From Gammaproteobacteria bacterium (GTDB lineage: Bacteria; Pseudomonadota; Gammaproteobacteria; Poriferisulfidales; GCA-002705445): 64,000 nt of DNA. The stretch spans positions 195,588 to 259,587 of the forward strand of contig JABGXU010000008.1 in the NCBI GenBank assembly GCA_018675635.1. Direction: 5' to 3'. Numbering within the stretch: position 1 is the stretch's first letter; every line of letters begins with the position of its first letter. A program made the position numbers and the translations under genes. Below, in pieces: positions 9,595 through 25,994 of the stretch. The notes under the pieces were generated by a model. The model was given only the letters and a program-made list of their open reading frames with translations. It had not been told where the DNA came from and made no database searches.

Positions 9595-10273
9595 GATTGA
9601 AAATAATATTTTAAATATTAAAAAAAATATTATTAAAGCTGAATTAAATTCAAGTAGAAAAGAAAATAGTGTTATTTTAATGGCTGTTAGTAAAACACAA
9701 TCCGTAGAAAAAATTAAGCATGCCTATAATGCTGGGCAAAAGGACTTTGGTGAAAATTATTTACAAGAAGCTGTAAAAAAAATTTTAGAATTAAAAAATT
9801 TTGATATTATTTGGCACTATATTGGTAAAATTCAGGGTAATAAAGCAAAATTAATTGCGGATAATTTTGATTGGGTTCATAGCGCTGACAAAATTTCAAC
9901 TCTTATAAAAATTGATAATTATAGAAATAAGTTAGAAAAAAATCTTAATGTTTGCATACAGGTAAATATTGATAATGAAGAATCTAAATCTGGCATTGAA
10001 ATTAAAAATATTGAAGAGTTTTTAGAATCTACACATAACCTTCAAAATATTAATATTAGGGGATTAATGGCTATACCTCAATATCAAGAAAGTTTTGAAG
10101 ATCAATTTAATACATTTAAAAGGCTTCAGGATTTATTTAATAACCTTGTAAAAAAAGGATATAAATTAGATACTCTATCAATTGGAATGAGTTCAGATTA
10201 TCATGCAGCTATAGAAGCAGGATCTACAATTATAAGAATTGGTACAGCAATATTTGGTGAAAGAATAAAATGA
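9587..10273 (+). CDS. yggS: PLP homeostasis protein YggS (alanine racemase-fold PLP-binding)
   Basis: Start taken at 9587 (MNEIENN). ILMAVSKTQ, FGENYLQE, HYIGKIQGNKAK motifs. Conserved yggS-proC-yggT order. Confidence 0.85.
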   Translation: MNEIENNILNIKKNIIKAELNSSRKENSVILMAVSKTQSVEKIKHAYNAGQKDFGENYLQEAVKKILELKNFDIIWHYIGKIQGNKAKLIADNFDWVHSADKISTLIKIDNYRNKLEKNLNVCIQVNIDNEESKSGIEIKNIEEFLESTHNLQNINIRGLMAIPQYQESFEDQFNTFKRLQDLFNNLVKKGYKLDTLSIGMSSDYHAAIEAGSTIIRIGTAIFGERIK

Positions 10274-11085
10274 AAATAGCATTTATTGGTTATGGAAATA
10301 TGTCAATTGCAATTATTGACGGAATACTGGAATCTAAAAATAATAATTTTTTAGATAATATATATATATTTCATAATAAAGAAAATTTACATTCTAAAAA
10401 AGAAGGTTGTAAATACTATTTGTCTGGAAATAATCAATCTAAAGAAAATTTCGATATTGTTTTTCTAGCGGTAAAGCCAAAAGATATAAATAATGCAATA
10501 AGAGAAAATATTAATATTTTTAAAGATGAGCAAATCATTATTTCTATAGTTGCTGGTATAAATGTAAAAACGATAAAAAGCATTATAAATAGAAATAATT
10601 CTATAATAAGGGCTATGCCAAATTTATGTGCAAAAATCAAAAAAAGCACTTCAATTATTTTTTATTATAATAATCTTAATAATAATTTAAAAAAATCAAT
10701 AGAAAGTTTATTTTCTTGTATTGGAAGCATTATAATAATTACAGATGAAGAGCAGCTTCATAGTTACACAGCTTTAACTGGAAGCGGGCCAGCATATGTG
10801 ATGTATTTTATAGAAGCCATGTATGAAGCTTGTGAAAATTTTAATATTGATGATAGTTTGAAGTTCAAAGTAATTTTGGATATGGCTATTGGTACTTTAG
10901 ATTTAATTGAAAAAAAATCTAAAGGAATTGAGGATATAAAAAAAATGCGTAATGAAGTTACTTCTAAAGGCGGTACAACAGAAGCAGCCATAAAAAGTTT
11001 ATCGGATAATTCATTTTCTAAAATTTTAAGGGATGCGGTCAATGAAGCAAAGATAAAATCTATAGATTTATCAATTAAGGATTAA
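10270..11085 (+). CDS. proC: pyrroline-5-carboxylate reductase
   Basis: 271 aa; MKIAFIGYGNMSIAII Rossmann N-terminus; C-terminal TSKGGTTEAAI motif. Confidence 0.9.
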   Translation: MKIAFIGYGNMSIAIIDGILESKNNNFLDNIYIFHNKENLHSKKEGCKYYLSGNNQSKENFDIVFLAVKPKDINNAIRENINIFKDEQIIISIVAGINVKTIKSIINRNNSIIRAMPNLCAKIKKSTSIIFYYNNLNNNLKKSIESLFSCIGSIIIITDEEQLHSYTALTGSGPAYVMYFIEAMYEACENFNIDDSLKFKVILDMAIGTLDLIEKKSKGIEDIKKMRNEVTSKGGTTEAAIKSLSDNSFSKILRDAVNEAKIKSIDLSIKD

Positions 11086-11087
11086 AT

Positions 11088-11648
11088 TTGATGTCAAATT
11101 CATTTCCACAATTAGGGTTAAATTTAATAGATATATTTTTTTCTTTTATTATATTTGTTTTTACGTTAAGACTATTAATGTCTTTTTTTAGTACGAGTGC
11201 ATATAATCCAATAACGCAGTCATTAATTAAAATATCAAGACCAATATTAGTGTTTTTTTTCTTTATTCCTAATCTAAATAAATTTGAGTTATCAAGTCTT
11301 TTCGTTATATTTTTATCGCATTTTTTAAATTTTTTTATACAAGGTTCTTTAATAGGAGCAGACATTTTTATTGAGTCTATAATAATATTTTCTATTAAGA
11401 GTTCTATATTTAGCATTCTTAATGTTTTATCAATTATTTTTATAATATTAGCTTTATCTAGTTGGTTTGTTCAATCTTCACAATCTAACAGAAATCCAGC
11501 ATTAGATATAATTTATCAGATATCAACCCCAATTTTATTTTTTATTAAGAGATTAGTGCCTACATCAATAGGTGTAATAGATTTTTCAGTAATAATTGTA
11601 CTTGTTCTTATTATATTTATTAAAAATATCGTTAATATTATTTTATAA
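11088..11648 (+). CDS. yggT: YggT family membrane protein
   Basis: 186-aa polytopic membrane protein in the canonical position after proC. Confidence 0.7.
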   Translation: MMSNSFPQLGLNLIDIFFSFIIFVFTLRLLMSFFSTSAYNPITQSLIKISRPILVFFFFIPNLNKFELSSLFVIFLSHFLNFFIQGSLIGADIFIESIIIFSIKSSIFSILNVLSIIFIILALSSWFVQSSQSNRNPALDIIYQISTPILFFIKRLVPTSIGVIDFSVIIVLVLIIFIKNIVNIIL

Positions 11649-11689
11649 GCTTATTTGTATATTTTTCTAAATTCGTATATATTGCATAA

Positions 11690-11745
11690 AACACCGATTT
11701 GAAGTCAGCTTGCGGGTGGGAAAATACAGCTAAAGCGAAAAATTT
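11690..11745 (+). ncRNA. candidate SAM-II-like (metX-type) leader element, speculative
   Basis: In the metX 5' UTR: CGAUUUGAAGUCAGCUUGCGGGUGGGAAAAUACAGCUAAAGCG. This can form a CACCG/CGG(G)UG hairpin whose loop AGCU can pair with the downstream AGCUAAAG tail (H-type pseudoknot). The GCUAAAG tail is reminiscent of SAM-II. Confidence 0.2.
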
Positions 11746-11799
11746 ATCAAGCATAGCCAAATTTCCTTTATATATAATAATGATTTCAAATATGAAATT

Positions 11800-12942
11800 A
11801 TGGATTTTATTATGCAAAATAAACTAGATAAAAATTCAGTTGGCATTGTTTCTCCTAGCTCTGTTGAGATAAAGCAGAGTCTGGAGCTTGATTGTGGGAA
11901 AACTATAGAAAATTTTTGTTTGGTATATGAAACGTATGGGAAATTAAATAAAGAAAAAAATAATGCAATTCTAATTTGTCATGCTTTATCTGGGGATCAT
12001 CATGCTGCTGGGTATCATGACATTAATGATAAGAAGCCAGGATGGTGGGACGTATGTATAGGCCCAAACAAACCTTTTGATACTAATAAATTTTTCATAG
12101 TCTCTCTTAACAATCTTGGTGGTTGTATGGGCTCAACTGGGCCAAACACATTAGATAAAAAAACTGGTAATGAATATGGTCCTGATTTTCCAATAGTTAC
12201 TGTAAATGATTGGGTTAATAGCCAAAAATTATTGGCTGATTATTTAGGAATTAATGCTTGGGCTTGTGTTATTGGAGGTAGTCTTGGAGGTATGCAAGCG
12301 TTGCAGTGGGCAATAAGTTACCCAGACAAAATAAGAAATTCAATAATAATTGCTGCTGCAGCAAAACTTTCTGCCCAAAATATTGCATTTAATGAAGTAG
12401 CAAGACAGTCGATAATTACCGACCCAGAATTTCATGACGGGCATTACAATAAATTTGGAGTTATTCCAAAAAGAGGACTTAGTATCGCAAGAATGTTAGG
12501 GCATATAACATATTTGTCTGATGATTCTATGAGGCAGAAATTTGGGAGAGATTTAAGAGAGGGAAAATTACATTTTGGATATGATGTAGATTTTCAAGTA
12601 GAAAGTTATTTGAGATATCAAGCACAAGCATTTGTGGAAAGATTTGATGCAAACACATATTTATTAATGACTAAGGCATTAGATTATTTTGACCCGGCAA
12701 AAGAACATGGAGGAGATTTATCAAAAGCATTAGAAAATACTAAGTCTAGGTTCCTTGTTTTGTCTTTTACTAGTGATTGGCGTTTTTCATCATCTAGATC
12801 ACATGAAATAGTGAAATCATTAGTTAGAGCAAGAAAAAGTGTTTCTTATTCTGAAATTGAAGCAAATCATGGACATGATGCATTCTTAATGCCAATACCT
12901 CAATATTTGGGTGTTCTTAAGAATTTTATGGAGAATGTCTAA
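11800..12942 (+). CDS. metX: homoserine O-acyltransferase MetX
   Basis: 380 aa alpha/beta hydrolase; [13 protein letters not shown] and [13 protein letters not shown] motifs; followed by metW. Confidence 0.9.
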
Positions 12943-13541
12943 TGATAAGAAAAGATTTTAAAATAATATCTGATTGGATAAAAAAAGATTCAACTGTTTT
13001 AGATTTAGGTTGTGGTGATTCAACCTTGCTTGAATATTTAAAAATAAATAAAAATATTTCTGGTTATGGATTTGAAAAAGATATTAATAAGGTTCAAGAG
13101 TCTATAAAAAAAAATATTAATGTAATACAAGCAGATTTTAATGTTGGTTTGGCAAAATATTTTAATAGTAACTTTTTTGATTACGCAGTTATGACTCAAG
13201 CACTTCAAGAAAACAAGAACCCAAATCATATAATTTTAGAAATGTTAAGGGTTGCAAGAGAAGGTATTGTAACTTTCCCCAATATGGGATTTTGGAAAAA
13301 CAGGTTTCAACTTGGTTTTCTTGGACGTATGCCAGTATCAAATTCATTGCCAAATAATTGGTTTGATACCCCAAATATTCATTTGTGTACTTTTAATGAT
13401 TTTGAAAAACTTTGTGGAGATTTAGAAATTATTATTTTAGATAAGAAAGTTTTAAATAATAATTATTCCACTAATTTTCTACTTAAAATATTTCCTAATT
13501 TTTTTGGGGAAATAGCTTTATATCGTTTTAAGAAAGATTAA
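12942..13541 (+). CDS. metW: methionine biosynthesis protein MetW
   Basis: 199 aa; VLDLGCGDSTLLEYL SAM-MTase-like N-terminus; ATGA overlap with metX. Confidence 0.9.
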   Translation: MIRKDFKIISDWIKKDSTVLDLGCGDSTLLEYLKINKNISGYGFEKDINKVQESIKKNINVIQADFNVGLAKYFNSNFFDYAVMTQALQENKNPNHIILEMLRVAREGIVTFPNMGFWKNRFQLGFLGRMPVSNSLPNNWFDTPNIHLCTFNDFEKLCGDLEIIILDKKVLNNNYSTNFLLKIFPNFFGEIALYRFKKD

Positions 13542-13973
13542 TTATTTTGTTTTAATTTTTGCCTTAATAAAATCAGTATGACTTAAATGCAGTAATTCTG
13601 ATATTTTTCTAATTCTGTGTTCTTCATGTTTATCAATAATATTATCAACTCTTGCTATTTTCCAAGCCATATTAAGTATTGTTTTTTTCTGTGTATTAGT
13701 AAATTTATCGTTAATTAATTTAATGTACTTTCTAAGACAATTAATGTTCTTATGTAATTCTTGTGCTTCAGCAGTTACCCATTTAGCTTTTTCTTTGTCT
13801 AAATTATATTCTTTTTCAATTAGATTGACTATAGATCTAATTTCAATTTCACTAATTTTAAAGTCAGCATAGCTAACTTCTATTAAAATTATTGCACAAG
13901 CGATGTTAATATCACTTATTGGATCAATATTCTCTGGTGCTTTTTTAAATATTTTTTTTATTAGATTTAGCAT
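13542..13973 (-). CDS. TerB-like (tellurite resistance TerB family / DjlA-N-like) protein
   Basis: 143-aa all-helical protein with acidic/aromatic repeats typical of the TerB fold. Weak, composition- and pattern-based. Confidence 0.4.
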   Translation of the reverse strand: MLNLIKKIFKKAPENIDPISDINIACAIILIEVSYADFKISEIEIRSIVNLIEKEYNLDKEKAKWVTAEAQELHKNINCLRKYIKLINDKFTNTQKKTILNMAWKIARVDNIIDKHEEHRIRKISELLHLSHTDFIKAKIKTK

Positions 13974-14082
13974 AATTTATGATATTTTATCATTAATAGA
14001 ATATATAATTTTAATTTTTTCAATATCATTGATAATTTCATTATTAAGATATAAAGTAACATAAAATAATTTTTGATAAATT

Positions 14083-14481
14083 ATGACTAATTATACGGAT
14101 AAAGAATTTATGTACATAACAGAAACTGTTATGAGGATTTTAGATACTTGGAACCTTACAACCCAGCAAATGGTTTTAGTTATAGGACTTCCAACTCAAA
14201 CTAAGAAAAGACAGCTAGATAAATTCAGATCTCTAAAAGCTTTTCCAAAGGATGATCTAATTATAAAAAGGCTAAGTCATATAGTAGGAATATCTGATGC
14301 ACTACGAACTTCATTTCCAAGAAATGAAAATATGTCAGAAAAATGGTTAAAAACACAACATAGGAGATTTGATAATGAGACCCCTTTGTCTGTTATATTG
14401 GAGCAAGGGGTGGATGGACTATGTAAAGTAAGATCTGAATTAGATTGCACTTTTGCATGGGATACATCTGTACAAATTTAA
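14083..14481 (+). CDS. Xre/MbcA/ParS-like antitoxin-domain (DUF2384-like) protein
   Basis: The C-terminus WLKTQHRRFDNETPLSVILEQGVDGLCKVRSEL fits the W..(n)..P..L(L/I)..G...V..L pattern of the DUF2384 toxin-binding domain. The N-terminal region LTTQQMVLVIGLPTQTKKRQLDKF is HTH-like. Confidence 0.5.
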   Translation: MTNYTDKEFMYITETVMRILDTWNLTTQQMVLVIGLPTQTKKRQLDKFRSLKAFPKDDLIIKRLSHIVGISDALRTSFPRNENMSEKWLKTQHRRFDNETPLSVILEQGVDGLCKVRSELDCTFAWDTSVQI

Positions 14482-14493
14482 TCAATTAATATT

Positions 14494-15006
14494 ATGAAAA
14501 AACTTTACACAATAAAAAATTCAAAATTACATGGAAAAGGGTTATTTGCTAATTGCAACATAAAAGCCGAAACAAATATTGTTGAGTACGTTGGTGAAAA
14601 AATAACAAAAGCACAATCAGAGAAAATATCTGATATACAACTAAAAAAATCTCAAAAAAATAAAGATGAAGGGCAAGTATATATTTTCACATTAAATAAT
14701 AAATATGATATTAACGGCAATGTAAATTATAACAAAGCTAGATTAATGAATCATTCATGTAATTCTAATTGTGATACCGATATAATTGATAATAAAATTT
14801 GGATAAGATCGTATAAAGATATTAAGAAAGGTGAAGAATTGACATATGATTATGGTTTTACTTTTGATAAAGATGATTTTAGAGATCACATTTGTAAATG
14901 TGGGTCAAGAAAATGTGTAGGATTTATTGTAACTGAAACAGACTGGAAAAAGCTAAGAAAGTTTCTGTTAAAGCTAGCTAAAAATTGTTTAAAAACTAAC
15001 GAATAA
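14494..15006 (+). CDS. SET-domain protein-lysine N-methyltransferase
   Basis: GKGLFA (GxG), RLMNHSCNSNC (NHSC), ELTYDYGF (catalytic Tyr) and post-SET CKCGSRKC. Lies 12 bp downstream of the preceding ORF. Confidence 0.85.
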   Translation: MKKLYTIKNSKLHGKGLFANCNIKAETNIVEYVGEKITKAQSEKISDIQLKKSQKNKDEGQVYIFTLNNKYDINGNVNYNKARLMNHSCNSNCDTDIIDNKIWIRSYKDIKKGEELTYDYGFTFDKDDFRDHICKCGSRKCVGFIVTETDWKKLRKFLLKLAKNCLKTNE

Positions 15007-15655
15007 ATTTTTTTGAAAAGCAAGAAACGTTATTTATTGAAGTATAATTTTCTACTATTTGTTTTTCTTTTTTTGAATCCGGATAATTTATCGAGATAAG
15101 ATTTTTAATACCATTTTTTTCAGCAAATTTTAAAACATTTTCATTATCATCAATAAAGAATGTTTTTTCTTTATTATAAATTATATTTTTATTTAATATA
15201 TTCCAAAAATTTTCCGTCTCTTTGGCATACCCATAATCATGAGATGAAATTATTTTATTAAAATACCCCCATAATTTAGACTGTGTAATTTTAATATTTA
15301 GCATTTCTCTTGGGCAATTAGTTATTAGAACTGTATTAATCTGATTTTTTTTTAGAGTTTTAAGGAATTCTATTGTGTTAGGAAGCACTGAAATTTTGTC
15401 TTTGGTATTTAATATTTCTGATTTTAAATTAATGTTCAAAATATTACTCCAGTAATTTATGCTGTACCATTCAATAGTACTTTTTTTCTCCATATACATG
15501 CCTTCAAGTATTATTTTTGCTTCTGCAAATGTTGTTTTTTCTATTTTAGAATATAAATTTGGAATATGCTCATGCCAAAAATAGTTGTCATATGCTAGAT
15601 CAAGTAATGTTCCATCCATATCTAAAAAAAACGTTTCTATTACGCCCCATTTCAT
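14996..15655 (-). CDS. HAD-superfamily hydrolase (YrfG-like nucleotidase family)
   Basis: FLDMDGTLLDL motif I (DxDGT) near the N-terminus; 219 aa. Confidence 0.7.
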   Translation of the reverse strand: MKWGVIETFFLDMDGTLLDLAYDNYFWHEHIPNLYSKIEKTTFAEAKIILEGMYMEKKSTIEWYSINYWSNILNINLKSEILNTKDKISVLPNTIEFLKTLKKNQINTVLITNCPREMLNIKITQSKLWGYFNKIISSHDYGYAKETENFWNILNKNIIYNKEKTFFIDDNENVLKFAEKNGIKNLISINYPDSKKEKQIVENYTSINNVSCFSKKFIR

Positions 15656-15692
15656 CTACTCTATTCCTACATTAGTTATTTATTTGATATAT

Positions 15693-16877
15693 ATGATAAC
15701 AGAAAAAAAATATACAGCTTTGGTAAACCTATTATTACAGGTACTGTTTGTTGGTATTTTGCTTGGGTTATTTAGAACTGCTATTCCAGCATTATCAGAA
15801 AGTGTTTTTTTAGTCCCTAAAAATTCATTTATATTTTTATCTACTTTTATTATTGCTTTTGGGATCATTAAGGGAATTGCTAATTATTATGCTGGTGTTT
15901 TTGCTGATAAATATAATAGAAAAACTGTTCTATTATTAGGTTGGTTAGTAGCATTTCCAGTTCCTTTTATAATTTATTTTGCTACAAATTGGTATTACAT
16001 AATTTTAGCCACATTTATTATTGGCATTAATCAAGGGCTAACCTGGTCAGTGACACAAATTTCAAGTGTAGATATTACAAAAAATGAGAATAGAGGATTT
16101 ATTGTTGGGTTAAATGAATTTTCTGGATATTTTGGTGTTGCTATTGGAGGTATTTTAGTTAGTTATATGACATCTTTACTTACAGTAAAAATAGCTTTAT
16201 TTCTTTTTAGTATAATATTTATTTTAATAGCTACTTTATATTGTATATTTTTGGTTAAAGAAACAAAAAGCTATGCAAACATAGCATTTGGTAAAAATCC
16301 AAAAAACGTTTTTTTATATGTAACATGGACAAATAAAAAATTATTTGCTTATTCTCAGGCAGGACACATTGAAAAATTTGTTGATACTTGTATATGGATC
16401 TTCTTCCCTGTTTATTTGTTTAATAACGGTGTAACTTTAATTGAAATTAGTTACATAGTTGGTACATATACTTTTACTTGGGGGATTTTTCAAATTTTCA
16501 CGGGTTTGTATTCTGATTATGTGGGAAGAAACTTATTAATTATATCAGGAATGTTAATTTGTTCTATTGTACTTCCATTATGTTTATTAAGTCTTGAATT
16601 TAGTTGGTGGATGACGTGTAGTTTTTTTCTTGGTTTGGGTATGGCTCTTTTATATCCGTCAATAAGCTCTGCTGTTAATGATAATTGTGATGATAGTTGG
16701 AGAGCTTCTGCAATTGGTATATATAGATTTTGGAGGGATACCGGTTATGCTACAGGAGCATTAGGATTAGGCATAGTAACAAGTTTAGTAAACATTGAGG
16801 CTGGCTTTATTTTTGTTTCTTTCAGCATGATATTGTCAACTTTAATTTTAATTTTTACTTTAAAAAAATATAGTTAG
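15693..16877 (+). CDS. MFS transporter
   Basis: About 12 TM segments. Start moved to ATG 15693 (MITEKK) to avoid a long overlap with the convergent HAD gene. Motif ADKYNRK between TM2 and TM3. Confidence 0.7.
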   Translation: MITEKKYTALVNLLLQVLFVGILLGLFRTAIPALSESVFLVPKNSFIFLSTFIIAFGIIKGIANYYAGVFADKYNRKTVLLLGWLVAFPVPFIIYFATNWYYIILATFIIGINQGLTWSVTQISSVDITKNENRGFIVGLNEFSGYFGVAIGGILVSYMTSLLTVKIALFLFSIIFILIATLYCIFLVKETKSYANIAFGKNPKNVFLYVTWTNKKLFAYSQAGHIEKFVDTCIWIFFPVYLFNNGVTLIEISYIVGTYTFTWGIFQIFTGLYSDYVGRNLLIISGMLICSIVLPLCLLSLEFSWWMTCSFFLGLGMALLYPSISSAVNDNCDDSWRASAIGIYRFWRDTGYATGALGLGIVTSLVNIEAGFIFVSFSMILSTLILIFTLKKYS

Positions 16878-16940
16878 TATATTAAATAAAAATGTTTTTG
16901 GTGAAACGATAGGAATTTGTAGTTAAGAATACTATGTATT

Positions 16941-18449
16941 CTATTTCACAAGTGGAGGAACCATACCATGGTGAAATATGTATGCTACACCGTAAGCTAT
17001 TGGAGCTATAACTACAAATAAACCAATAGCATATAGAAATGCAAGTTTACCCATGCCTTTTAATTTACTGAAATCAGTTATTACTCCGATGCTAACGAAA
17101 GTAAGCATAAACATCATTTTTCTCATAGGGCTTTGAACAACATTAGCTCCAACTGACGCAGCATCTTTTACATCTGGCGCTAAAATAATAATTAATAAAT
17201 AAAAAAACCAGGTTATAAAATAACCAATCACAAATTTTGGAAAGCGAAACCAAATTTCTGATAAAGGCACATTACTTCCAACCGACCTTTTTTCAACTTT
17301 GTACATCCATATTAAAGCCAATATAAACGCCCAAACACCAATAAAGACATCTATCCATATTTTAGTTAATACGGCAGCAGCAAGTATCCAATCCTCTTGC
17401 CATTGTTCTCCTGTTTCTTTTAGATGTTGGCTAACCATTATTTCATCTAATATTGCTCCTGCAGCCGCATCTGCGCCATCTGTTTTAACAGTCATGCCCA
17501 TAGCAGCACCATTTACTATTGGCTCATTAGGTGCAACAGCTGCATAAAAACCTGGCAATACCACTAATTCAAGCATTGCAAATATTACTATTAACATCGA
17601 AAGGGCTATAGGCAAAATGGGTTTTGCACGAATTGCGCCAGCTGTTGCAATTGCTGCAGAAACTCCACATATTGAAATACCAGATGACAGAACTGCTGCG
17701 GCGTCTCGACTAAGCTTAAATAATCTTCGCGATATAAAATATATAATTGGCCAAAATAAAAGATATGCTACAAAAACTGCGGCTGCACCAGTTAGAGCTA
17801 GATCTATTGCAAAACCTGTTGCTCTCATAGACATTAAGCCAAGCTTTATTCCAAGATAAACAATTGCTGTTTTAATAAACCATTCTGGTTTTGCTGATTC
17901 TCGTAAAAACTTTGCCAAATTTTTAAAAAAATTTCCTATTATTAATCCAATAGCTAAAGCTAGCATATAAGAAAAACCACCACCCAATTGTAACCCCCAT
18001 GTTAAATTATATTTTTCAAAATAATTTTTTCCTTTTACAATGGCATCAACAGATTTGAAGTGTGCTTCATGACCTACAATCCAGCATAGCCATGTAATAA
18101 AAAATATAATGGTGAACCCAAAAAAGAATTTTTTTACATCAAGTTTTTGAAAGTAAGCACCAATGCATGTAATAAATGTAAAAATAAAATAAGTGAAAAA
18201 TAATGAAACTAGAGGATGTAATTGCGCATAGTATTTTGTAGATGGTTTAAGCAACTTTGCCCATGAAAAATTAGACATAAGATCAGTCCATTCCCAAGTT
18301 TTTACTTTTGTCATCCATCCTACTAGGTCAATATCCCAGATAGTAAAAAGTCCTGCAAAAAACATTATTAAACCTAACCAGACTGCCCACCAGTCTTCTG
18401 TTCGCAGCATGCCATCTGACCATTTTCTATTAATATTTTCCATATTCAT
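16941..18449 (-). CDS. YeiH/UPF0324-family putative transporter with ~150-aa N-terminal membrane extension
   Basis: 502-aa polytopic membrane protein. LSSGISICGVSAAIATAGAI resembles the conserved GSSICGASA motif of the YeiH putative sulfate exporter family. Confidence 0.5.
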   Translation of the reverse strand: MNMENINRKWSDGMLRTEDWWAVWLGLIMFFAGLFTIWDIDLVGWMTKVKTWEWTDLMSNFSWAKLLKPSTKYYAQLHPLVSLFFTYFIFTFITCIGAYFQKLDVKKFFFGFTIIFFITWLCWIVGHEAHFKSVDAIVKGKNYFEKYNLTWGLQLGGGFSYMLALAIGLIIGNFFKNLAKFLRESAKPEWFIKTAIVYLGIKLGLMSMRATGFAIDLALTGAAAVFVAYLLFWPIIYFISRRLFKLSRDAAAVLSSGISICGVSAAIATAGAIRAKPILPIALSMLIVIFAMLELVVLPGFYAAVAPNEPIVNGAAMGMTVKTDGADAAAGAILDEIMVSQHLKETGEQWQEDWILAAAVLTKIWIDVFIGVWAFILALIWMYKVEKRSVGSNVPLSEIWFRFPKFVIGYFITWFFYLLIIILAPDVKDAASVGANVVQSPMRKMMFMLTFVSIGVITDFSKLKGMGKLAFLYAIGLFVVIAPIAYGVAYIFHHGMVPPLVK

Positions 18450-18712
18450 ATATCAAAAATTAATATTCTGTTGAAATAGTGTGAATGATATTGATGAAGC
18501 CACTTCGGGAATGTGGAAAAATCATAAACCATATTAACTTTTATTTTTTTTCCTTTTTCTTTTATTAGTAAATTAGTTAGCGTTATTTTAATTTTATCAT
18601 CTAGATCAGTAATCTCTTTTGCTTTCAATTTCAAGAAATTATTTTTCGCAAACCAATAATTATTATTATGGCTAATTTGTAATTCTGTATTTATTACTAG
18701 TATTGTCTTCAT
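18446..18712 (-). CDS. hypothetical 88-aa protein, translationally coupled (ATGA) on both sides
   Basis: ORF start overlaps the stop of the upstream 54-aa ORF. Its stop overlaps the ATG of the YeiH-like gene. Confidence 0.45.
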   Translation of the reverse strand: MKTILVINTELQISHNNNYWFAKNNFLKLKAKEITDLDDKIKITLTNLLIKEKGKKIKVNMVYDFSTFPKWLHQYHSHYFNRILIFDI

Positions 18713-18873
18713 AATACTAACAAGTTTATTAAAATACCGAGAATAATTAAACCAATAATGGCAATTAGGATACTATAGATTACTAGTTTTGATTCCCAGC
18801 TTTCCCATGGTTCTGGGTTACTTAGTAATTCTTGCGCAGACTCTAATTCAATAGATTTTACTTTATCTTTCAT
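18709..18873 (-). CDS. unannotated 54-aa single-TM peptide (MKDKVKSIELESAQELLSNPEPWESWESKLVIYSILIAIIGLIILGILINLLVL)
   Basis: Translated by hand from the - strand. GAGG lies 9 nt upstream of the ATG. The stop TGA overlaps the ATG of the 88-aa ORF. It is below the ORF-track length cutoff. Confidence 0.5.
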   Translation of the reverse strand: MKDKVKSIELESAQELLSNPEPWESWESKLVIYSILIAIIGLIILGILINLLVL

Positions 18874-19012
18874 TTTTAAAAACCTCATAAAGTACTTTAT
18901 ATAATATATGGAAAAATTTGCTAAATTAACAAATTTTTCTTATAGAGTAGTTTAATATGAATAGCATAAAAGTTAGATATGCTAAAGATTTTTTTTAATA
19001 GAATATTATAAA

Positions 19013-19088
19013 TGGTGGCTCGGGGCAGAATTGAACTGCCGACACGAGGATTTTCAGTCCACTGCTCTACCAACTGAGCTACCAAGCC
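19013..19088 (-). tRNA. tRNA-Phe (GAA)
   Basis: Reverse complement reads GGCTTGGTAGCTCAGTTGGTAGAGCAGTGGACTGAAAATCC...TTCAATTCTGCCCCGAGCCACCA. It has a 7-bp acceptor stem, a GAA anticodon in a CTGAAAA loop, a T-loop GTTCAATTC and an encoded CCA. Confidence 0.95.
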
Positions 19089-19276
19089 GTTATTCATTTA
19101 TAATTCATTATGAAAAAAGTGAGTATACACTAATGTATTAATAGATGAAGTTATGTTTTTAATGATAAATTTTTTTATATTTTTTCATCAATATGAAATA
19201 TATTAGATATTCATTATATTCGAATAATGGTATTTATTATAAATATTCAGTGAGTTTTTTTTATTTCTAAATTAAT

Positions 19277-19540
19277 TTATTTTGGTTTAAATTCCTTAGG
19301 GAGCTCTGAACCTCTGCCAAATAAAAATTTTTCCATTTCTTCTTCTAAAAAAGTTCTAGCTTTTGGTTCCATAGGTGTCAGTCTATTTTCATTAATAAGC
19401 ATGGTCATATGCTTCACCCAAAGAGCCCATGCTTCTTTCGAAATATTTTCAAAAATTTTTTTACCTAATTCTCCAGGATATGTAGGTCTATCTAAACCTC
19501 CCAACTCTTTATTAAGCATTAAACAATTTACAGTACGCAT
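19277..19540 (-). CDS. yggX: Fe(II)-trafficking / oxidative damage protection protein YggX
   Basis: 87 aa; [21 protein letters not shown]...MLINE matches the YggX family. Confidence 0.85.
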
Positions 19541-19743
19541 TAGGAAAGTTCCTCCGTCATTTTATTATAACCGATTTAACTGGTTTTGAAGATGCAATAT
19601 TATCATAAATATTTTTCCAGTAATATTTATCAATTGTTATATTATTTATTGATTTCGTTTTAATAACAGAAACATTCATTTTAATATGTGTTAAATTATG
19701 TCTGCCATTATTTTTATGACAGCTAATTAAGTTATAAGAAAAA

Positions 19744-20229
19744 TTATTTTTTTGATCTTTTCCATTCACCAGAGGCGCCACCTTTCTTAGATTCAAGCAT
19801 AATATCACCTATAATCATTCCTCTATCGATAGATTTACACATATCGTATATTGTTAACAGTCCTATTTGTACAGCGGTAAGAGCTTCCATCTCCACACCT
19901 GTTTGTCCAGTTGTTTCAACAATTGCTTCGCATGATACAAACTTTTTTGTAGAATTAATTTTAAAAATAACTTTAACTGAAGATAAGTTTATATTATGAC
20001 AAAGCGGTATTAGTTCAGATGTTTTTTTTGATGATGTAATTGCAGCAATTCGTGCGATTCCAAGCACGTCTCCTTTTTTATGTGTTCCATCTTTAATTTT
20101 GTTAATAGAAATTACGGACATGAAGATTTTGCCGCTAGCAACAGCTATTCTATTCGTGATATCCTTATCTTTAATATCAACCATTTGGGCATCTCCAGTT
20201 TTAGTAAAATGCGTAAGGTTTTTTTTCAT
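19744..20229 (-). CDS. moaC: cyclic pyranopterin monophosphate synthase MoaC
   Basis: Start taken at MKKNLTHFT. LTHFTKTGDAQMVDI and GVEMEALTAV motifs. Confidence 0.85.
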   Translation of the reverse strand: MKKNLTHFTKTGDAQMVDIKDKDITNRIAVASGKIFMSVISINKIKDGTHKKGDVLGIARIAAITSSKKTSELIPLCHNINLSSVKVIFKINSTKKFVSCEAIVETTGQTGVEMEALTAVQIGLLTIYDMCKSIDRGMIIGDIMLESKKGGASGEWKRSKK

Positions 20230-20266
20230 TTTAATAAATTTTATTTTTTTATAGTGTAACAAAAAT

Positions 20267-20500
20267 ATGAATATAAAAGTAATTTACTTAGCAAGATTAT
20301 CAGAAGACTTAGGTAAAAAAGAAGAGTATATAGAATTAACAGAAAACAAGTCTTCAATTAGAGATATTTTTTTAAAACTTAAGCTAGATAAATTTGATTA
20401 TCAGATTTATTCAGCTAAAAACTATGAGCATGCTAGCTTAGATTCTATTGTAGTAGAAAAAGATGAAATTGCTTTTTTCCCAACAATAACCGGCGGTTGA
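20267..20500 (+). CDS. moaD: MoaD/ThiS-family sulfur carrier protein (probable MoaD)
   Basis: 77 aa ending in -TGG (Gly-Gly C-terminus); divergent from moaC. Confidence 0.65.
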   Translation: MNIKVIYLARLSEDLGKKEEYIELTENKSSIRDIFLKLKLDKFDYQIYSAKNYEHASLDSIVVEKDEIAFFPTITGG

Positions 20501-20505
20501 AAATT

Positions 20506-21873
20506 TTAGTTTATTAAGAGAAAGGCAGTTCTATTTTTTCTTTGAACATGAAGTACTATTCCAGAATCGTTTTTCCCAGCAATAATTTCTAAATCTTTAA
20601 TTTTTTGAACAGGAATATTATTTATTGATAATATTATATCATTGACTCTAATGCCCACTGAGTATGCTGGGCTATCTTTTTTTATTTTAGTAACTTTTAT
20701 ACCACTAATTTTCCCATATTCTGGCATATTCTCTAAAATTTCACTAAAAACCATTCCTTGCAACCTAGGATTTATTTTAATGCCAGTTTTATCTGATATT
20801 TTTGGTTCAACTATTTTTACTTTAATTTTAAGTATTTTTCCTTTTCTATTTACTTCCATAAGAATATTGGTATTAATTTTCAGAAGGCCAATTTTATTTC
20901 TCATTGAAGCAGCATTTTCAATTTTTTTGTTATTTAATTTTGTTATTACATCACCAATTTGTATACCTGCTTTATCAGCAGGAGAATTTTTTTGTACTTG
21001 GGTAACTATTGCTCCTTTTTCTGTATTTATCCCAAATGCTTTTGATAAGTCTTTGGTTAGATCTTGTGCGGCGACGCCAAGATAACCTCTTTTTACTTTA
21101 CCGTATTTAATTAATTGATCGGTAATATCTAGAGCCATATTTATTGGTATAGCTAAACCTATCCCAACACTTCCTGAGCTTCCTCTAGATCCTATTATCG
21201 CAGTATTAATACCTACAATCTCTCCTTTTAAATTAACTAATGCTCCACCAGAGTTGCCAGGATTTATAGATGCATCTGTTTGTATGAAATTTTCATAAGC
21301 CTCAATTCCTAAACCAGACCTTCCTAAGGCGCTTATTATTCCAGAAGTTACTGTTTGGCCAATACCAAATGGATTCCCAATAGCTACGACAAAATCCCCA
21401 ACTCTAGATTTTTCAGAATTTGCAAATTTTAATGATTGAAGGTTATCTGGTGTAATTTTTATTATGGCAATATCAGATGCAGGGTCTGTCCCTACTAAAC
21501 TAGCTTTAAATTCTCTACCATCCTGCAGTTTAACTTTAATATCTTTAGCTTTTGCAATTACATGATTGTTAGTAATAATATAGCCTTTTTTACTGTCTAT
21601 GATAACGCCAGAGCCTAGCCCAGCTCTGTTTTTCTTTTTAGATTGTTGTTGACCTGGAATATTAAAAAATTTTCTAAGAAAAGGATCATCAATGTATTGG
21701 TTTTTTTCTTCAGCTTCTCTAATAGTATAAATATTTACAACTGCAGGCGTAACATTTTCTAACATTGGAGCTAAGGAAGGAACACCAGCACTGAATAAAT
21801 TAGATGTGTTTGCAAATAATGTTGTAGATGTAAGGATCAATACTATAAGTAATAATTTTTTTAGAATTTTCAT
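20506..21873 (-). CDS. degP: periplasmic serine endoprotease DegP/DegQ (HtrA family)
   Basis: Signal peptide, trypsin-like GNSGGALVNLKGEIVGINTAI, two PDZ-like C-terminal segments. Confidence 0.9.
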   Translation of the reverse strand: MKILKKLLLIVLILTSTTLFANTSNLFSAGVPSLAPMLENVTPAVVNIYTIREAEEKNQYIDDPFLRKFFNIPGQQQSKKKNRAGLGSGVIIDSKKGYIITNNHVIAKAKDIKVKLQDGREFKASLVGTDPASDIAIIKITPDNLQSLKFANSEKSRVGDFVVAIGNPFGIGQTVTSGIISALGRSGLGIEAYENFIQTDASINPGNSGGALVNLKGEIVGINTAIIGSRGSSGSVGIGLAIPINMALDITDQLIKYGKVKRGYLGVAAQDLTKDLSKAFGINTEKGAIVTQVQKNSPADKAGIQIGDVITKLNNKKIENAASMRNKIGLLKINTNILMEVNRKGKILKIKVKIVEPKISDKTGIKINPRLQGMVFSEILENMPEYGKISGIKVTKIKKDSPAYSVGIRVNDIILSINNIPVQKIKDLEIIAGKNDSGIVLHVQRKNRTAFLLIN

Positions 21874-21883
21874 TGTTTTTTAG

Positions 21884-22369
21884 TTACGTTTTATTTTCAA
21901 ATTTTCCTAAATCTATATTTTTTCTGACATTATCAGATCGAAATACTCTTCCACTCATTGCAATATAAACACCATTTTCTAAACTTACAGCAGCAGCATA
22001 TGCAAATCCAGAATTAAATATAGCATCTGTTTTTCTAAATCTTGCTGGTTGCATAGAGCCTGTAAGAACTATAGTTTTATTTTCAATGTTTTCTAAGCAC
22101 TTTGCTGTTTCTATCATCGTGTCAGTTCCATGAGTAATTATAATTTTATCTTCTTCGCAATTTTTTACAGCATTTTTTATTATTTCCCTTTCTTCTTGGG
22201 TTATATCTAAACTATCTTTTTTTAAAATTGATTGTACTCGGTAGTCAGAAGTAACGTTTCCTTCATCAAGTATAGATGATATACAAGGTTCGCCAATACT
22301 ATATTCACTATTGGCATCAAAATAAACTTTGTCAAATGTGCCCCCGGTCGTAAGGATTGCTACTTTCAT
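21884..22369 (-). CDS. asparaginase N-terminal-domain protein (short form)
   Basis: Start taken at MKVAILTTGGTF with GGAG 11 nt upstream. TGGT and THGTDTM threonine motifs. Only about 160 aa, with no C-terminal domain. Confidence 0.5.
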   Translation of the reverse strand: MKVAILTTGGTFDKVYFDANSEYSIGEPCISSILDEGNVTSDYRVQSILKKDSLDITQEEREIIKNAVKNCEEDKIIITHGTDTMIETAKCLENIENKTIVLTGSMQPARFRKTDAIFNSGFAYAAAVSLENGVYIAMSGRVFRSDNVRKNIDLGKFENKT

Positions 22370-22484
22370 ATTAATATACTCCAATACAATTAATGCTATG
22401 TTATTATGTCGAGATTGTAATTCTTCATAAAAATAGGAAATAAGCAAATTTATTTTATTTATTTAATAACTTGGAATATTTAAT

Positions 22485-23201
22485 ATGAGAAAAAATGGAA
22501 GAAAGCCTAACCAACTAAGGGATATAAGGATTACTAAGGATTATATTTCTCACCCAGAAGGATCGGTATTAGTCGAGTTTGGTAAAACAAAAGTTATTTG
22601 TAATGCCACAGTTGATAATAATGTTCCAAGATTTCTTAAGGGGCAAAGTACTGGTTGGGTTACAGCTGAATATGGAATGCTTCCAAGATCAACCAATGAA
22701 AGGATGAGAAGAGAGGCAAAAAATAGACAGAGTGGTAGAACCATGGAAATTCAAAGATTAATTGGGAGATCTTTAAGGTCTGCAGTAAATTTGGACAAAA
22801 TTGGCGAAAGAACAATAACAATTGATTGCGATGTAATTCAGGCTGATGGCGGAACCAGAACTGCGTCAATTACTGGGGGCTTTGTAGCGCTTTATTTAGC
22901 CGTCAGAAATTTAGATAGCGAAGATTTTAGTTCGGCTGATGCAATTAAGTCTTTTACTGGGTCTGTTTCGTTAGGTAAAGTTAATAATGAAATTGTTCTA
23001 GATCTTGATTACGAAGAAGATTCAAACGCTGAAACAGATATGAATTTTGTGATGAATGAAGATGGAAATTTTATTGAGATTCAGGGAACTGCTGAAGCTG
23101 GTTTTTTTTCGCAGGATGAATTAAATCAAATGATATCTTTGGCTACTGAAGGTATAAGATCTATTATTGAGATTCAAAAAAATGCTCTAAATAGTGTATG
23201 A
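22485..23201 (+). CDS. rph: ribonuclease PH
   Basis: 238 aa; [12 protein letters not shown]...[15 protein letters not shown] matches RNase PH. Confidence 0.95.
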
Positions 23202-23803
23202 ATAAAATTGTTATTGCCTCAAATAATCAGCATAAAATTAATGAATTTAATAAAATCTTAGGCCGCGAGGATGTGAAATTCATATCCCAGTCTGAGCTCA
23301 ATATTACTGAAGCAGCTGAGACTGGTTTAACATTTGTAGAAAATGCTATATTAAAAGCAAGAAATGCTTGTTTATTTTCAGGTATACCATCAATTGCAGA
23401 TGATTCAGGGATTGAAGTCGATGCTTTATCAGGAAGACCAGGTATTTATTCAGCTAGATATGCAGGTGATAATTGCGATGATTATGCAAACAATAAATTA
23501 TTACTAAAGGAACTTTCAAATGTTCCTTTTGAAAGAAGAAACGCAAGATATCATTGCGCAATAGTTTTTTTAAGTAAACATGATTGTTCAATGCCAAAAA
23601 TATTTAATGCAACATGGGAGGGTGTTATTGGAAGCAAGGAAATAGGTGATAATGGATTTGGTTACGATCCATTATTCTTTTTACCAACGCTAAATTGCAC
23701 CGCTGCTGAGCTCTCAGAAGATGAAAAAAATACAATTAGCCATCGTGGTAAAGCTTTGAATTTGTTTAAAAAAGAAATTAAGGAAATAATATTAAAATAC
23801 TAG
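23198..23803 (+). CDS. rdgB: dITP/XTP pyrophosphatase RdgB (Ham1 family)
   Basis: 201 aa; [14 protein letters not shown] and C-terminal SHRGKAL motifs; overlaps the rph stop. Confidence 0.9.
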
Positions 23804-23880
23804 CTATTTTTTATATAAATAATGTAAATTTTTATTGATTTTTTTAATTTTCTTCTAAATCTAGCATGGAATAAGGTTAT

Positions 23881-24243
23881 TTATTCACAGTTATTTTTTT
23901 GTCAACTTCTTTTATAAATTTATTAAAAATAAATTAGCGTTAAAAATTATTAATTTTTATTTAATAAAATCAATAAGTTATATTGTACAAAAAATGAACA
24001 ATTTAGTAATTATTAAAGAATGTTTGCCGTGTGATTAAAAAACTAAGTTTTTTGCACAGACTTATCCACAATTTTTGTGGATATAAAAAATATCCTTAAA
24101 AACAGTAATTTATATAGATATATTAAAATTTATTACCAAATAATAGGCTAACTATGGTAAAAATACCTACCAATTCATTATATTATTATTGTCTTATAGA
24201 CGATATTACTTGTAGGTATTTAGTTCTTTAGGTATTATTCACT
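23881..24243. promoter_or_regulatory. cluster of DnaA-box-like 9-mers in AT-rich intergenic region
   Basis: TTATTCACA at 23881-23889. TGTGATTAA (rc TTAATCACA) at 24030-24038. Perfect consensus TTATCCACA at 24062-24070. TGTGGATAT (rc ATATCCACA) at 24077-24085, forming an inverted repeat with the previous box. TTATTCACT at 24235-24243. Confidence 0.5.
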
Positions 24244-24267
24244 CTCTTAATTTACAATAAAGATATT

Positions 24268-24474
24268 ATGCAAAAAAATATTCATCCAAAATATAATGAA
24301 ATAGAGGTTGTTTGTAGTTGTGGTAACAAATTTATAACAAAATCTACATATAAAGACTCGGTTCTTTCTATAGACGTATGTTCTCAATGTCATCCTTTTT
24401 ATACTGGAAAGCAAAAGATATTAGATACCGCAGGTCAGGTAGATAAGTTTAAAAAGAGATATAGCAAAACATAA
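24268..24474 (+). CDS. rpmE: 50S ribosomal protein L31 (Zn-ribbon type)
   Basis: 68 aa; CSCGN...[10 protein letters not shown] zinc motif. Confidence 0.95.
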
Positions 24475-24526
24475 ATTTTATCTAATTCTGCTTTATATTC
24501 ATTGTTTTTTTCGGCAATATTAGCTT

Positions 24527-25993
24527 ATGGATAGACGCGGATTTTTAAAAGCTTCAACTTTATTTTCATTATCTGGAATATTGCCCTCCTGTGCAACTAA
24601 TCCAGTAACTGGTGAAACGGATCTAATGCTTTTATCTGAAGATGAGGAAGCAGAATTAGGAAGAACTTCTCATATCGAAGTGATGAAAGCTTATAGGCCT
24701 TACATAAACCCTGAATTGGTAAAATACGTAACTTCATTGGGTGAAAAATTAGCTTCGGTTAGCCATAGAAAGGAGTTAATTTATCATTTTACAGTTTTAG
24801 ATAGCCCGCACGTCAATGCTTTTGCTATACCTGGAGGCTATATTTATATAACTAGGGGTATGATGGCTTATTTAGGAAGTGAGGCAGAGTTATGTGGTGT
24901 TTTAGGCCATGAGCTTGGGCACATTACAGCGAGACATGGTGTAAAACAGTATTCTAAAAATCAAGTTACAAATATTTTTTCAACCGTATTTTCAATATTA
25001 ATTGGTAGTAGGCAACTAGCAAATATAAGTCAATTAGCTACAGCAGCCATATTAAGAGGATTTGGAAGAGAGGCTGAGTTAGAAGCCGATAGAGTAGGAG
25101 CTGAGTATTTAGGAAACCTTGGGTATGATCCTGACGCTTTAATAAATGTTATAGCTGTTCTTAAAAACCAAGAAGAGTTTGATAAAGTTCTAGCCAAAGA
25201 AGAGAATAGAGAACCTTATGCATATCATGGAGTATTTTCTACACATCCTAATAATGATAAAAGACTGCAGGAAGTTATAAAAGCTGTAAAAGATAATTTT
25301 AGTGAAAAAACTATAGATGAAAATAAAGAAAAATATTTAAGAATTATTGATGGAATGCCTTTTGGACCTGGTGACGGGCAAGGTTCAGCAAGAGGCTCAA
25401 GTTTTTATCATGCAGATCTAGATTTTACAGTTAAATTTCCAAAAGATTGGAAAATAGAAAATTTGCCAACTACTGTATTGTCAACTTCAAAGAATAGAGA
25501 AACATTAATAGAATTATCTATGAGAGATTTAAATAGAAAAATTTCTGCAGAAGAATTAGTAAAAAGACTTTATGGCAAACATGTAACTGGGGGTAAAAAT
25601 ATAATTACACCAGATTATAACGGGTATGCAGCAAATGTAGAGCTTGATACTTCTTTTGGAAAAAGTCATAAATGTAGAGTAGCTATATTATATAAAAATA
25701 AAAAAGAGGCGTTTCAATTTATTGCAACTACTAAATCAGAATCTGATTTTGAAAAATACATTGATGATTTTGATAAAACTATTAGAAGTATAAGAAAACT
25801 AAAAACAGAAGAGAAGGAGCTGGGGCAGTCAAAAAAGATAAAAATGTATAAAGTTAAAAAAGGAGATACCTTTAGAGGCCTGTCTGCAAAAAGTTCTTTC
25901 AGTACACATGCAGAAAATAGACTTAGAGTCCTTAATAATATGTACCCATCAGGAGAACCAATACCTGGTAATTATATAAAATTAGTATATTAA
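24527..25993 (+). CDS. M48-family zinc metalloprotease with C-terminal LysM-like domain
   Basis: HELGHITARH (HExxH). N-terminal RRGFLK twin-arginine-like signal followed by ..LPSC. C-terminal YKVKKGDTFRGLSAK...LNNM LysM-like segment. Confidence 0.75.
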   Translation: MDRRGFLKASTLFSLSGILPSCATNPVTGETDLMLLSEDEEAELGRTSHIEVMKAYRPYINPELVKYVTSLGEKLASVSHRKELIYHFTVLDSPHVNAFAIPGGYIYITRGMMAYLGSEAELCGVLGHELGHITARHGVKQYSKNQVTNIFSTVFSILIGSRQLANISQLATAAILRGFGREAELEADRVGAEYLGNLGYDPDALINVIAVLKNQEEFDKVLAKEENREPYAYHGVFSTHPNNDKRLQEVIKAVKDNFSEKTIDENKEKYLRIIDGMPFGPGDGQGSARGSSFYHADLDFTVKFPKDWKIENLPTTVLSTSKNRETLIELSMRDLNRKISAEELVKRLYGKHVTGGKNIITPDYNGYAANVELDTSFGKSHKCRVAILYKNKKEAFQFIATTKSESDFEKYIDDFDKTIRSIRKLKTEEKELGQSKKIKMYKVKKGDTFRGLSAKSSFSTHAENRLRVLNNMYPSGEPIPGNYIKLVY

Positions 25994-25994
25994 T

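Follow-up and report, generated by a model that had tools for sequence, protein, structure and literature searches.

The DNA analysed here (the window) is a stretch of 64,000 nucleotides (nt) from a Gammaproteobacteria bacterium (GenBank assembly GCA_018675635.1, contig JABGXU010000008.1, positions 195,588 to 259,587). Downstream of a tRNA-Phe gene, three consecutive genes encode a short peptide with one transmembrane (TM) helix, a soluble protein of the family DUF5395 and a large membrane protein related to YeiH (Table 1). Comparison across genomes indicates that this trio is a conserved, self-contained cassette. The reading we favour, with a probability of about 0.6, is that the three genes encode one machine, i.e. 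an ion-coupled secondary transporter of the elevator-type CPA/AT kind together with two dedicated small subunits. A preliminary description of this DNA had also proposed a transporter with two small accessory subunits, which is still the best reading in view of the conservation across phyla and the adjacency that is kept despite rearrangement.

The coordinates and the sequence agree with the arrangement described earlier, namely three minus-strand open reading frames (ORFs) downstream of tRNA-Phe, with ATGA overlaps and a GAGG ribosome-binding site. Both junctions consist of an ATGA stop/start overlap ('...TTA GTA TTA TGA AGA...' and '...GAT ATA TGA ATA TGG...'). The DUF5395 and transporter genes, which start inside these overlaps, have no element comparable to the GAGG. 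With a Shine-Dalgarno element at the first gene alone and such overlapping starts at the other two, a single mRNA of this genome would yield all three products together. The earlier assignment of a single-TM and a soluble product also holds. The peptide has a single strongly hydrophobic C-terminal segment (Kyte-Doolittle 19-residue maximum of 3.18), compared to a maximum of 0.11 for the second protein, in which no hydrophobic TM segment is present.

The start giving 54 amino acids (aa) was accepted for the peptide because of the spacing of the GAGG, the position of a promoter match relative to the first ATG, and public gene calls. Indeed, 54 aa is also the length called on three near-identical public contigs, and with a start at the first ATG (18888), the promoter match would leave no space for a leader. 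In a consensus scan, promoter-like sites in the region showed no excess over shuffled sequence. The inverted repeat further upstream could be a tRNA terminator or an operator.

Table 1. Features of the cassette and of the region upstream of it (positions in the window)
Feature	Position	Strand	Remarks
tRNA-Phe(GAA)	19013-19088	-	139 nt upstream of the cassette
Inverted repeat TAGCATA-N9-TATGCTA	about 18953-18975	-	between tRNA-Phe and the peptide gene
Sigma-70-like match TTGTTA-18-TATATT	18932-18903	-	consensus scan, 9/12 matches; weak evidence only
GAGG, Shine-Dalgarno-like	18886-18883	-	9 nt before ATG 18873; seen in the sequence
Peptide gene	18873..18709	-	54 aa; the alternative ATG 18888 would give 59 aa (ORF 18709-18888)
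Peptide motif EPWESWESKLV (consensus EPWExWExxLV)	18781..18813	-	directly before the TM helix
DUF5395 (PF17373) gene	18712..18446	-	88 aa, soluble product
DUF5395 C-terminal signature D64...P69-x-W71-x-x-Q74-Y75-x-x-H78-Y79-F80-N81	18470..18523	-	alignments
Transporter gene	18449..16941	-	502 aa, polytopic membrane protein, divergent PF03601 subfamily
N-terminal extension	17991..18449	-	residues 1-153; precedes the hhalign match to YeiH
PF03601-matching region	17037..17969	-	residues 161-471; Pfam
First signature motif SSGISICGVSAAIATAG	17637..17687	-	residues 255-271; GAGSSICGAAAVLAT in E. coli YeiH; alignments
Second signature motif GMTVKTDGADAAAGA	17454..17498	-	residues 318-332; GSTVHEVAQVVAAG in YeiH; register from BLASTP and hhalign

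Conservation of the trio and its two small proteins

The cassette was followed in two sets of loci. The transporter-seeded set consists of the 80 best of 517 stretches from a scan with one genome per species, in which the transporter is 59–80% identical to that of the window. A relative of the peptide lies upstream in 76 of these 80 loci and a relative of DUF5395 in 78, the exceptions being contig ends. The second set was seeded with DUF5395 and is independent of the transporter seed; it comprises loci on metagenome contigs with enough flanking DNA, and has the transporter in 72 of 73 and the peptide in 65 of 71 cases. The trio is thus conserved in other genomes, which the preliminary description had named as a check. 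At least six phyla are represented among the transporter-seeded loci, and the cassette is almost unchanged between these distantly related, for the most part marine, bacteria. According to the genome labels, the carriers are Gammaproteobacteria (including Thiotrichaceae, Thiohalomonadales and Acidiferrobacterales), Betaproteobacteria (Nitrosospira multiformis), Alphaproteobacteria (Hyphomicrobiales), Bacteroidota (many Flavobacteriales, Saprospiraceae), Bacillota (Desulforadius, Desulfotomaculum), Nitrospinota, Chlorobiota and Gemmatimonadota; most of these labels belong to metagenome bins, and single phylum labels can err. Nitrosococcus proteins are 68% identical to the transporter. Two divergent DUF5395 members were again found in trios of a 55-aa ORF, DUF5395 and a PF03601 protein of ~500 aa. 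The pairwise divergences of the three proteins correlate, with an r of about 0.63.

In most loci, neighbouring genes of the cassette overlap or are at most 20 nt apart, and some gaps reach about 150 nt. The tight coupling described earlier therefore applies, as ATGA overlaps, to this genome and not everywhere: judged from these junctions, the operon arrangement is general and the exact ATGA coupling is not. Long apparent fusions (e.g. 449 aa at locus L020) were discarded as read-through artefacts of choosing the longest ORF.

Gene order changes at several loci while adjacency is kept, with the transporter gene upstream of DUF5395 (L143, L157) or convergent to it (L138, L139, L151). A linkage that persists through rearrangement points to function rather than inherited synteny. 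At the convergent loci, the gene upstream of DUF5395 encodes a radical-SAM/SPASM protein (Pfam-confirmed at L151, with a near-identical tail at L138) or a FeoA-domain protein (L139). A relative of the peptide was not detected in these loci.

As negative controls, E. coli yeiH and four plasmid genes were used, all PF03601 genes outside the subfamily; none of these five has either partner within 2 kb. The plasmid genes match the transporter only from about residue 160 onward. Among plasmids, only such distant PF03601 genes and no copies of the subfamily were found, and plasmid carriage was therefore rejected as evidence of mobility. A separate case is L134 (2917-5732). Here, ~1 kb of short, broken ORFs separates a DUF5395 gene from a 58-aa ORF with a single TM segment (4249-4425), after which comes a PF03601 gene of canonical type (430 aa, 182 bits on Pfam). 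Small TM partners may also occur in other PF03601 branches.

The peptide matches no Pfam or NCBIfam family. In an alignment of 77 homologues, the family shows a variable N-terminal part of 20–30 residues, then EPWExWExxLV and a TM helix that runs to the end of the protein; the E, P, W, W, E, L and V of the motif are kept in at least 90%. An exhaustive HMMER search of 1.84 billion cluster representatives returned 55 that match the peptide, with lengths of 38–99 aa and the match always at the C-terminus. Across loci, the transporter has a mean pairwise identity of 67%, compared to 46% in the peptide and 35% in DUF5395; both small proteins drift outside their motifs. The ratio of nonsynonymous to synonymous differences (pN/pS) of the small ORFs is 0.14–0.37 for the closest pairs, the only ones for which dN/dS, the corresponding substitution ratio, is informative, with synonymous sites being saturated in most pairs. 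Together with the conserved motifs, these values indicate that the small proteins are under protein-level constraint. For the 54-aa ORF conservation is decisive, because an ORF of such size could arise by chance at ~28% GC.

The 88-aa protein matches Pfam PF17373 (DUF5395) with 76.2 bits (E 2.9e-21, residues 10-87 against profile positions 3-80 of 81), above the gathering threshold of 25 bits. The 166 family members found are 79–151 aa long. In an alignment of 44 sequences (36% mean column identity), W20, D64, P69, W71, Q74, H78, Y79 and N81 are invariant; in a second set (n=52) the same columns are invariant except D64 (about 90%). The structural model shows a HicB/TTHA1013-like (UPF0150) α/β fold, with HicB-type antitoxin-fold proteins as best structural neighbours. 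As far as the model goes, this is a generic small α/β fold.

Given these neighbours, and as small hydrophobic single-TM peptides are a common type of toxin, the two small genes might form an independent hitch-hiking module, for example one that resembles a toxin-antitoxin system, with the hydrophobic peptide as toxin and a HicB-fold protein as its antitoxin. HicB antitoxins, however, combine the N-terminal fold with a C-terminal DNA-binding domain and an adjacent HicA. DUF5395 was not classed as an antitoxin because it has no DNA-binding domain, being 79–151 aa throughout the family, and no HicA partner was seen. In addition, both proteins occur almost only beside this transporter subfamily, also after rearrangement, and are missing at other PF03601 loci, and no plasmid copies of the subfamily were found. 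The only clear pair without a transporter (1 of 73) is that of L154 (2844-3288), where no PF03601 gene follows and a 650-aa ORF on the opposite strand occupies the downstream space. A toxin-antitoxin function was rejected because of the strict linkage to the transporter, and an independent module of any kind is extremely unlikely.

A different division of labour is that the large protein transports alone, with DUF5395 as a metabolite-sensing regulator that opens or closes it and the peptide tethering or stabilising it, so that the role of the small proteins would be regulatory instead of structural. A precedent is SbtA-SbtB, a cyanobacterial Na+/bicarbonate transporter with a small soluble PII-like regulator. 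Unlike SbtB, DUF5395 has the HicB/TTHA1013-like fold and is not PII-like, its gene lies upstream rather than downstream of the transporter gene, and the cassette holds the single-TM peptide in addition. No match of DUF5395 to a nucleotide- or ligand-binding family was seen, and we consider a regulator of this kind improbable. Under the reading of one three-part machine, DUF5395 would be a cytoplasmic subunit or regulator that docks via its invariant tail. No papers on DUF5395 were found in the literature searched.

The transporter and its relation to YeiH

Membership of the large protein in the YeiH/UPF0324 family, as claimed before, was confirmed by a profile search. It matches PF03601 (Cons_hypoth698, PSE/YeiH) with 72.9 bits (E 2.9e-20, gathering threshold 24.5 bits), residues 161-471 aligning to profile positions 29-301 of 304. 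The label YeiH-like stands in the sense of family membership and not in that of orthology. NCBIfam TIGR00698 (YeiH, putative sulfate export) gives only 25.1 bits over residues 161-337, compared to a curated cut-off of 232.6 bits, and residues 154-480 align with residues 39-332 of E. coli YeiH at ~25% identity (profile alignment with hhalign; BLASTP). From these comparisons, the transporter is a divergent branch of PF03601 and not a YeiH orthologue.

Both signature motifs of the family, G-x-S-I-C-G-x-x-A and G-x-T-V, are shared with YeiH. The transporter carries SSGISICGVSAAIA at residues 255-268, and S256, I258, S259, C261, G262, V263, A265, I267, A268, T269 and G271 are invariant in the first motif among 58 homologues. 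In the second motif, G318, T320-A326, A329, G331 and A332 are invariant. Here, G-S-T-V-H-E-V-A of YeiH is aligned to G-M-T-V-K-T-D-G, so that K322-T323-D324-G325 replaces HEVA at the predicted ligand site. According to a preprint on the Bordetella protein (bioRxiv 10.64898/2026.04.22.720190), the predicted ligand residues of the YeiH family include the Glu-Val-Ala of this second motif (…TVHEVA…), which the transporter does not have; the placement of those residues on the E. coli YeiH numbering is our own inference. As the residues at the predicted ligand site of YeiH are replaced, the cargo would be distinct from that of YeiH, and the substrate is probably not the same. Besides these differences, the transporter is ~115 residues longer than YeiH at the N-terminus and also longer at the C-terminus, and ~35 residues are inserted near 335-360.

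A plain YeiH orthologue that exports sulfite or sulfate against sulfite stress, with the small proteins as minor lineage-specific add-ons, was weighed against these data. It would fit the PF03601 membership and the SICG-type motif in common, and sulfite resistance is what YeiH-family proteins are known to provide: genetic evidence links sulfite tolerance to YeiH in Salmonella (PMC12880088) and to the family member BP2808 in Bordetella (bioRxiv 10.64898/2026.04.22.720190). Many carriers are also named as sulfur-oxidising or sulfate-reducing vent and sediment lineages, the lifestyles being assumed from the names. However, TIGR00698 is missed by ~200 bits, and at the ligand site E-V-A has become T-D-G and H has become K. 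YeiH orthologues stand beside a divergently transcribed gene for the LysR regulator YeiE, and yeiE adjoins yeiH in E. coli, whereas no YeiE-type LysR regulator is conserved beside the cassette at any locus (clustering; 129 flanking ORFs). Ammonia and nitrite oxidisers and many Flavobacteriales are among the carriers as well, and the two partners, which do not accompany other PF03601 loci, are near-universal in the subfamily rather than occasional. The failure of TIGR00698, the missing regulator and the carrier range that includes nitrifiers and Flavobacteriales argue against a YeiH orthologue, an explanation we regard as unlikely.

Conservation is not limited to the part shared with YeiH. About 170 columns are invariant in the 58 transporter homologues, N-terminal extension included (TEDWW, GHEAH), and the pairwise identity across loci is at least 54%. 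The conserved blocks are AKPEWFIKT, SSGISICGVSAAIATAG, GMTVKTDGADAAAGA, TKIWID, RFPKF and RKMMFMLTF...ITDFSKLKGMG. Within the extension, E18, D19, W20, W24, G44, W45, W52, G126, E128 and H130 are invariant. It contains TM helices at about 18-38 and 79-100, a loop of ~40 residues with a small β-hairpin, a helix at 105-126 that is the topological equivalent of TM1 of YeiH, and the GHEAH loop.

The preliminary description had called the ~150-aa N-terminal membrane extension unusual. The extension is real, with the alignment to YeiH starting at residue 154, and the form as such was already described: PF03601 is placed in the 'reentrant-helix-reentrant' fold, with PSE_1 having nine helices and PSE_2 two extra N-terminal ones, an 11-helix form known from computational description (PMC8396727). 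In the AlphaFold2 (AF2) model, the helices at 18-38 and 79-100 precede that at 105-126, and the YeiH register starts at residue 154 compared to 39, past YeiH helix 1. K and R abound at the N-terminus and in the loops that follow TM2 and TM4, which fits an N-in orientation. These helix positions, the register with YeiH and the K/R-rich N-terminus and loops point to the PSE_2 type, an assignment made by topology. The layout would be an N-terminus inside, TM1, an outside loop of ~40 residues with the β-hairpin, TM2 and the YeiH-like core. Variants of 550–570 aa (P0034, P0038, P0067, P0086 and similar; alignment columns about 157-215) have a Cys-containing insertion of ~55 residues right after GHEAHFKA, at about residue 135 of the window protein. 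This loop would face outside, to the periplasm, where disulfide formation would fit.

The model has a pLDDT (predicted local distance difference test) of 84–94 at residues 21-130 and a mean of 69. It shows a CPA/AT-type fold with core and scaffold, which places the protein in the CPA/AT superfamily. This core and scaffold fold is common to Na+/H+ antiporters, ASBT, PIN, CitS and SbtA. Relatives of solved structure in the PDB were not found by single-sequence searches and only at chance level by profile searches.

The cassette can be compared to other systems of this fold class. LrgAB/CidAB and LysO share the 'reentrant-helix-reentrant' fold class with PSE, and LrgA is tabulated with three helices (3H) (PMC8396727). 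A transporter of this class can be split into two membrane proteins with neighbouring genes, as in the case of the small LrgA and the larger LrgB. Unlike LrgA, the peptide has one helix instead of three, and no similarity between them was seen by Pfam, the only comparison made; these systems, LysO included, also have no soluble third component.

A transporter fold may also serve a non-transport job, as a membrane sensor or 'transceptor', or as the ion-translocating anchor of a soluble enzyme encoded elsewhere. OadB-OadG, the membrane sector of the oxaloacetate decarboxylase Na+ pump, anchors the α subunit in this way. In contrast, a Pfam census found no carboxyltransferase or biotin-carrier gene near the cassette and Pfam gave no similarity between the peptide and OadG, nor did clustering and the census show any conserved third partner or enzyme gene nearby. 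All characterised PF03601 relatives behave as transporters, and the transport-site signature motifs are invariant in the subfamily. We judge a non-transport role very unlikely.

Proposed assembly, cargo and neighbourhood

In the three-part transporter we propose, the catalytic subunit would be the large protein, a divergent PSE/YeiH family member of PSE_2 type with an extended N-terminus and 11 TM helices. The substrate site would be formed by its two signature motifs, SSGISICGVSAAIATAG and GMTVKTDGADAAAGA, which would meet in the middle of the membrane as in models of the family. The peptide, anchored by its C-terminal helix, would belong to the scaffold and pack on the extra N-terminal helices, and its EPWExWE segment would lie where the membrane meets the aqueous phase. 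DUF5395 would dock on the cytoplasmic face via the P-x-W-x-x-Q-Y-x-x-H-Y-F-N tail, where it would serve in assembly or stabilisation, or work as a gate. The physical association of the three proteins is inferred from genomic linkage, and their stoichiometry is likewise an inference. Transport would be ion-coupled and elevator-like, as in other CPA/AT members. The cargo would be a small ion and, like that of the sulfite-linked YeiH, most likely an anion, though a different one.

Several results weigh against this proposal. The putative substrate site (residues 269-318) has a pLDDT below 50 in the AF2 model, and a Foldseek search of the model against the PDB gave nothing significant. Fusions, which might join the subunits in one chain, were found neither among the 55 peptide representatives nor among the 166 DUF5395 proteins. 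The peptide is missing upstream in 6 of the 71 DUF5395-seeded loci, and may be dispensable or encoded elsewhere in some lineages. Lastly, Rfam, clustering and the Pfam census revealed no riboswitch, regulator or metabolic neighbour that hints at the cargo. Rfam gave only tRNA in positions 16000-20000 of the window and nothing relevant in 13 related loci. No neighbours beyond the trio are conserved according to clustering, and in the census the 129 flanking ORFs gave 148 Pfam families with a maximum count of 6.

A bolder proposal is that the cassette represents a hitherto unrecognised class of secondary transporter with three obligate subunits: a core of PSE type, a peptide anchored by its tail and a HicB-fold protein in the cytoplasm. 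Horizontal transfer would have carried this class as a unit through marine and sediment chemolithoautotrophs, Flavobacteriales and sulfate reducers. Its extreme conservation would be due to a substrate of general biogeochemical importance that no known PSE member handles, with DUF5395 as a ligand-sensing gate. This proposal is possible, and we put it forward only tentatively.

An obligate association of such a transporter with DUF5395 and a peptide without family, as seen in the gene neighbourhoods, appears not to have been described in the literature searched. For the large PSE/YeiH family, a first physiological role, namely sulfite tolerance, was reported only very recently. DUF5395 gains a concrete context as the partner of a transporter, and a conserved micro-protein family is added. 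The cassette would be a compact and portable system for the study of how small subunits assemble with or regulate elevator-type transporters, and it is present in cultured organisms (Nitrosococcus, Nitrosospira multiformis and Desulforadius tongensis). The gain is limited until the substrate is found; a substrate or a structure of the complex would raise its value sharply.

In the window, the flanking genes are housekeeping genes. They encode an MFS protein, a HAD protein, a SET-domain protein, a YggX-type Fe trafficking protein, MoaC and a DegP-like protease, as well as RNase PH, Ham1/RdgB, MetW, an M48 peptidase and DsbD. The longest ORF of the MFS gene (15585-16877, plus strand, 430 aa) has a TTG start and overlaps the start of the divergent HAD-hydrolase gene (14996-15655, minus strand) by 71 nt; in public gene calls the protein has 396 aa, and the true start is probably further downstream. 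The GC content around the locus is very low, 24–36% (positions 10000-26000), without a compositional island; this and the housekeeping genes would suit a marine gammaproteobacterium with a streamlined genome. Recent transfer beside the tRNA-Phe gene, considered on the basis of base composition, was rejected as there is no island signal. The higher GC content of the transporter gene probably reflects its Ala/Gly-rich sequence.

Some flanks at other loci can be mentioned. On plasmid pKN1 of Sphingobium yanoikuyae (L168:653-2996), a 463-aa PF03601 gene outside the subfamily lies right after a serine O-acetyltransferase gene (epsC), a sulfur/cysteine context that is not present around the cassette studied here. 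Two loci of a divergent clade (L081, L083) have a divergent homocysteine S-methyltransferase-domain gene upstream, genes for glycerol kinase and a MIP-channel downstream and pyrroloquinoline quinone (PQQ) dehydrogenases nearby, which is probably lineage synteny. In Desulforadius tongensis (L071:6703-9295), a clustered regularly interspaced short palindromic repeat (CRISPR) array with at least 24 repeats (Rfam CRISPR-DR2) lies directly downstream of the cassette.

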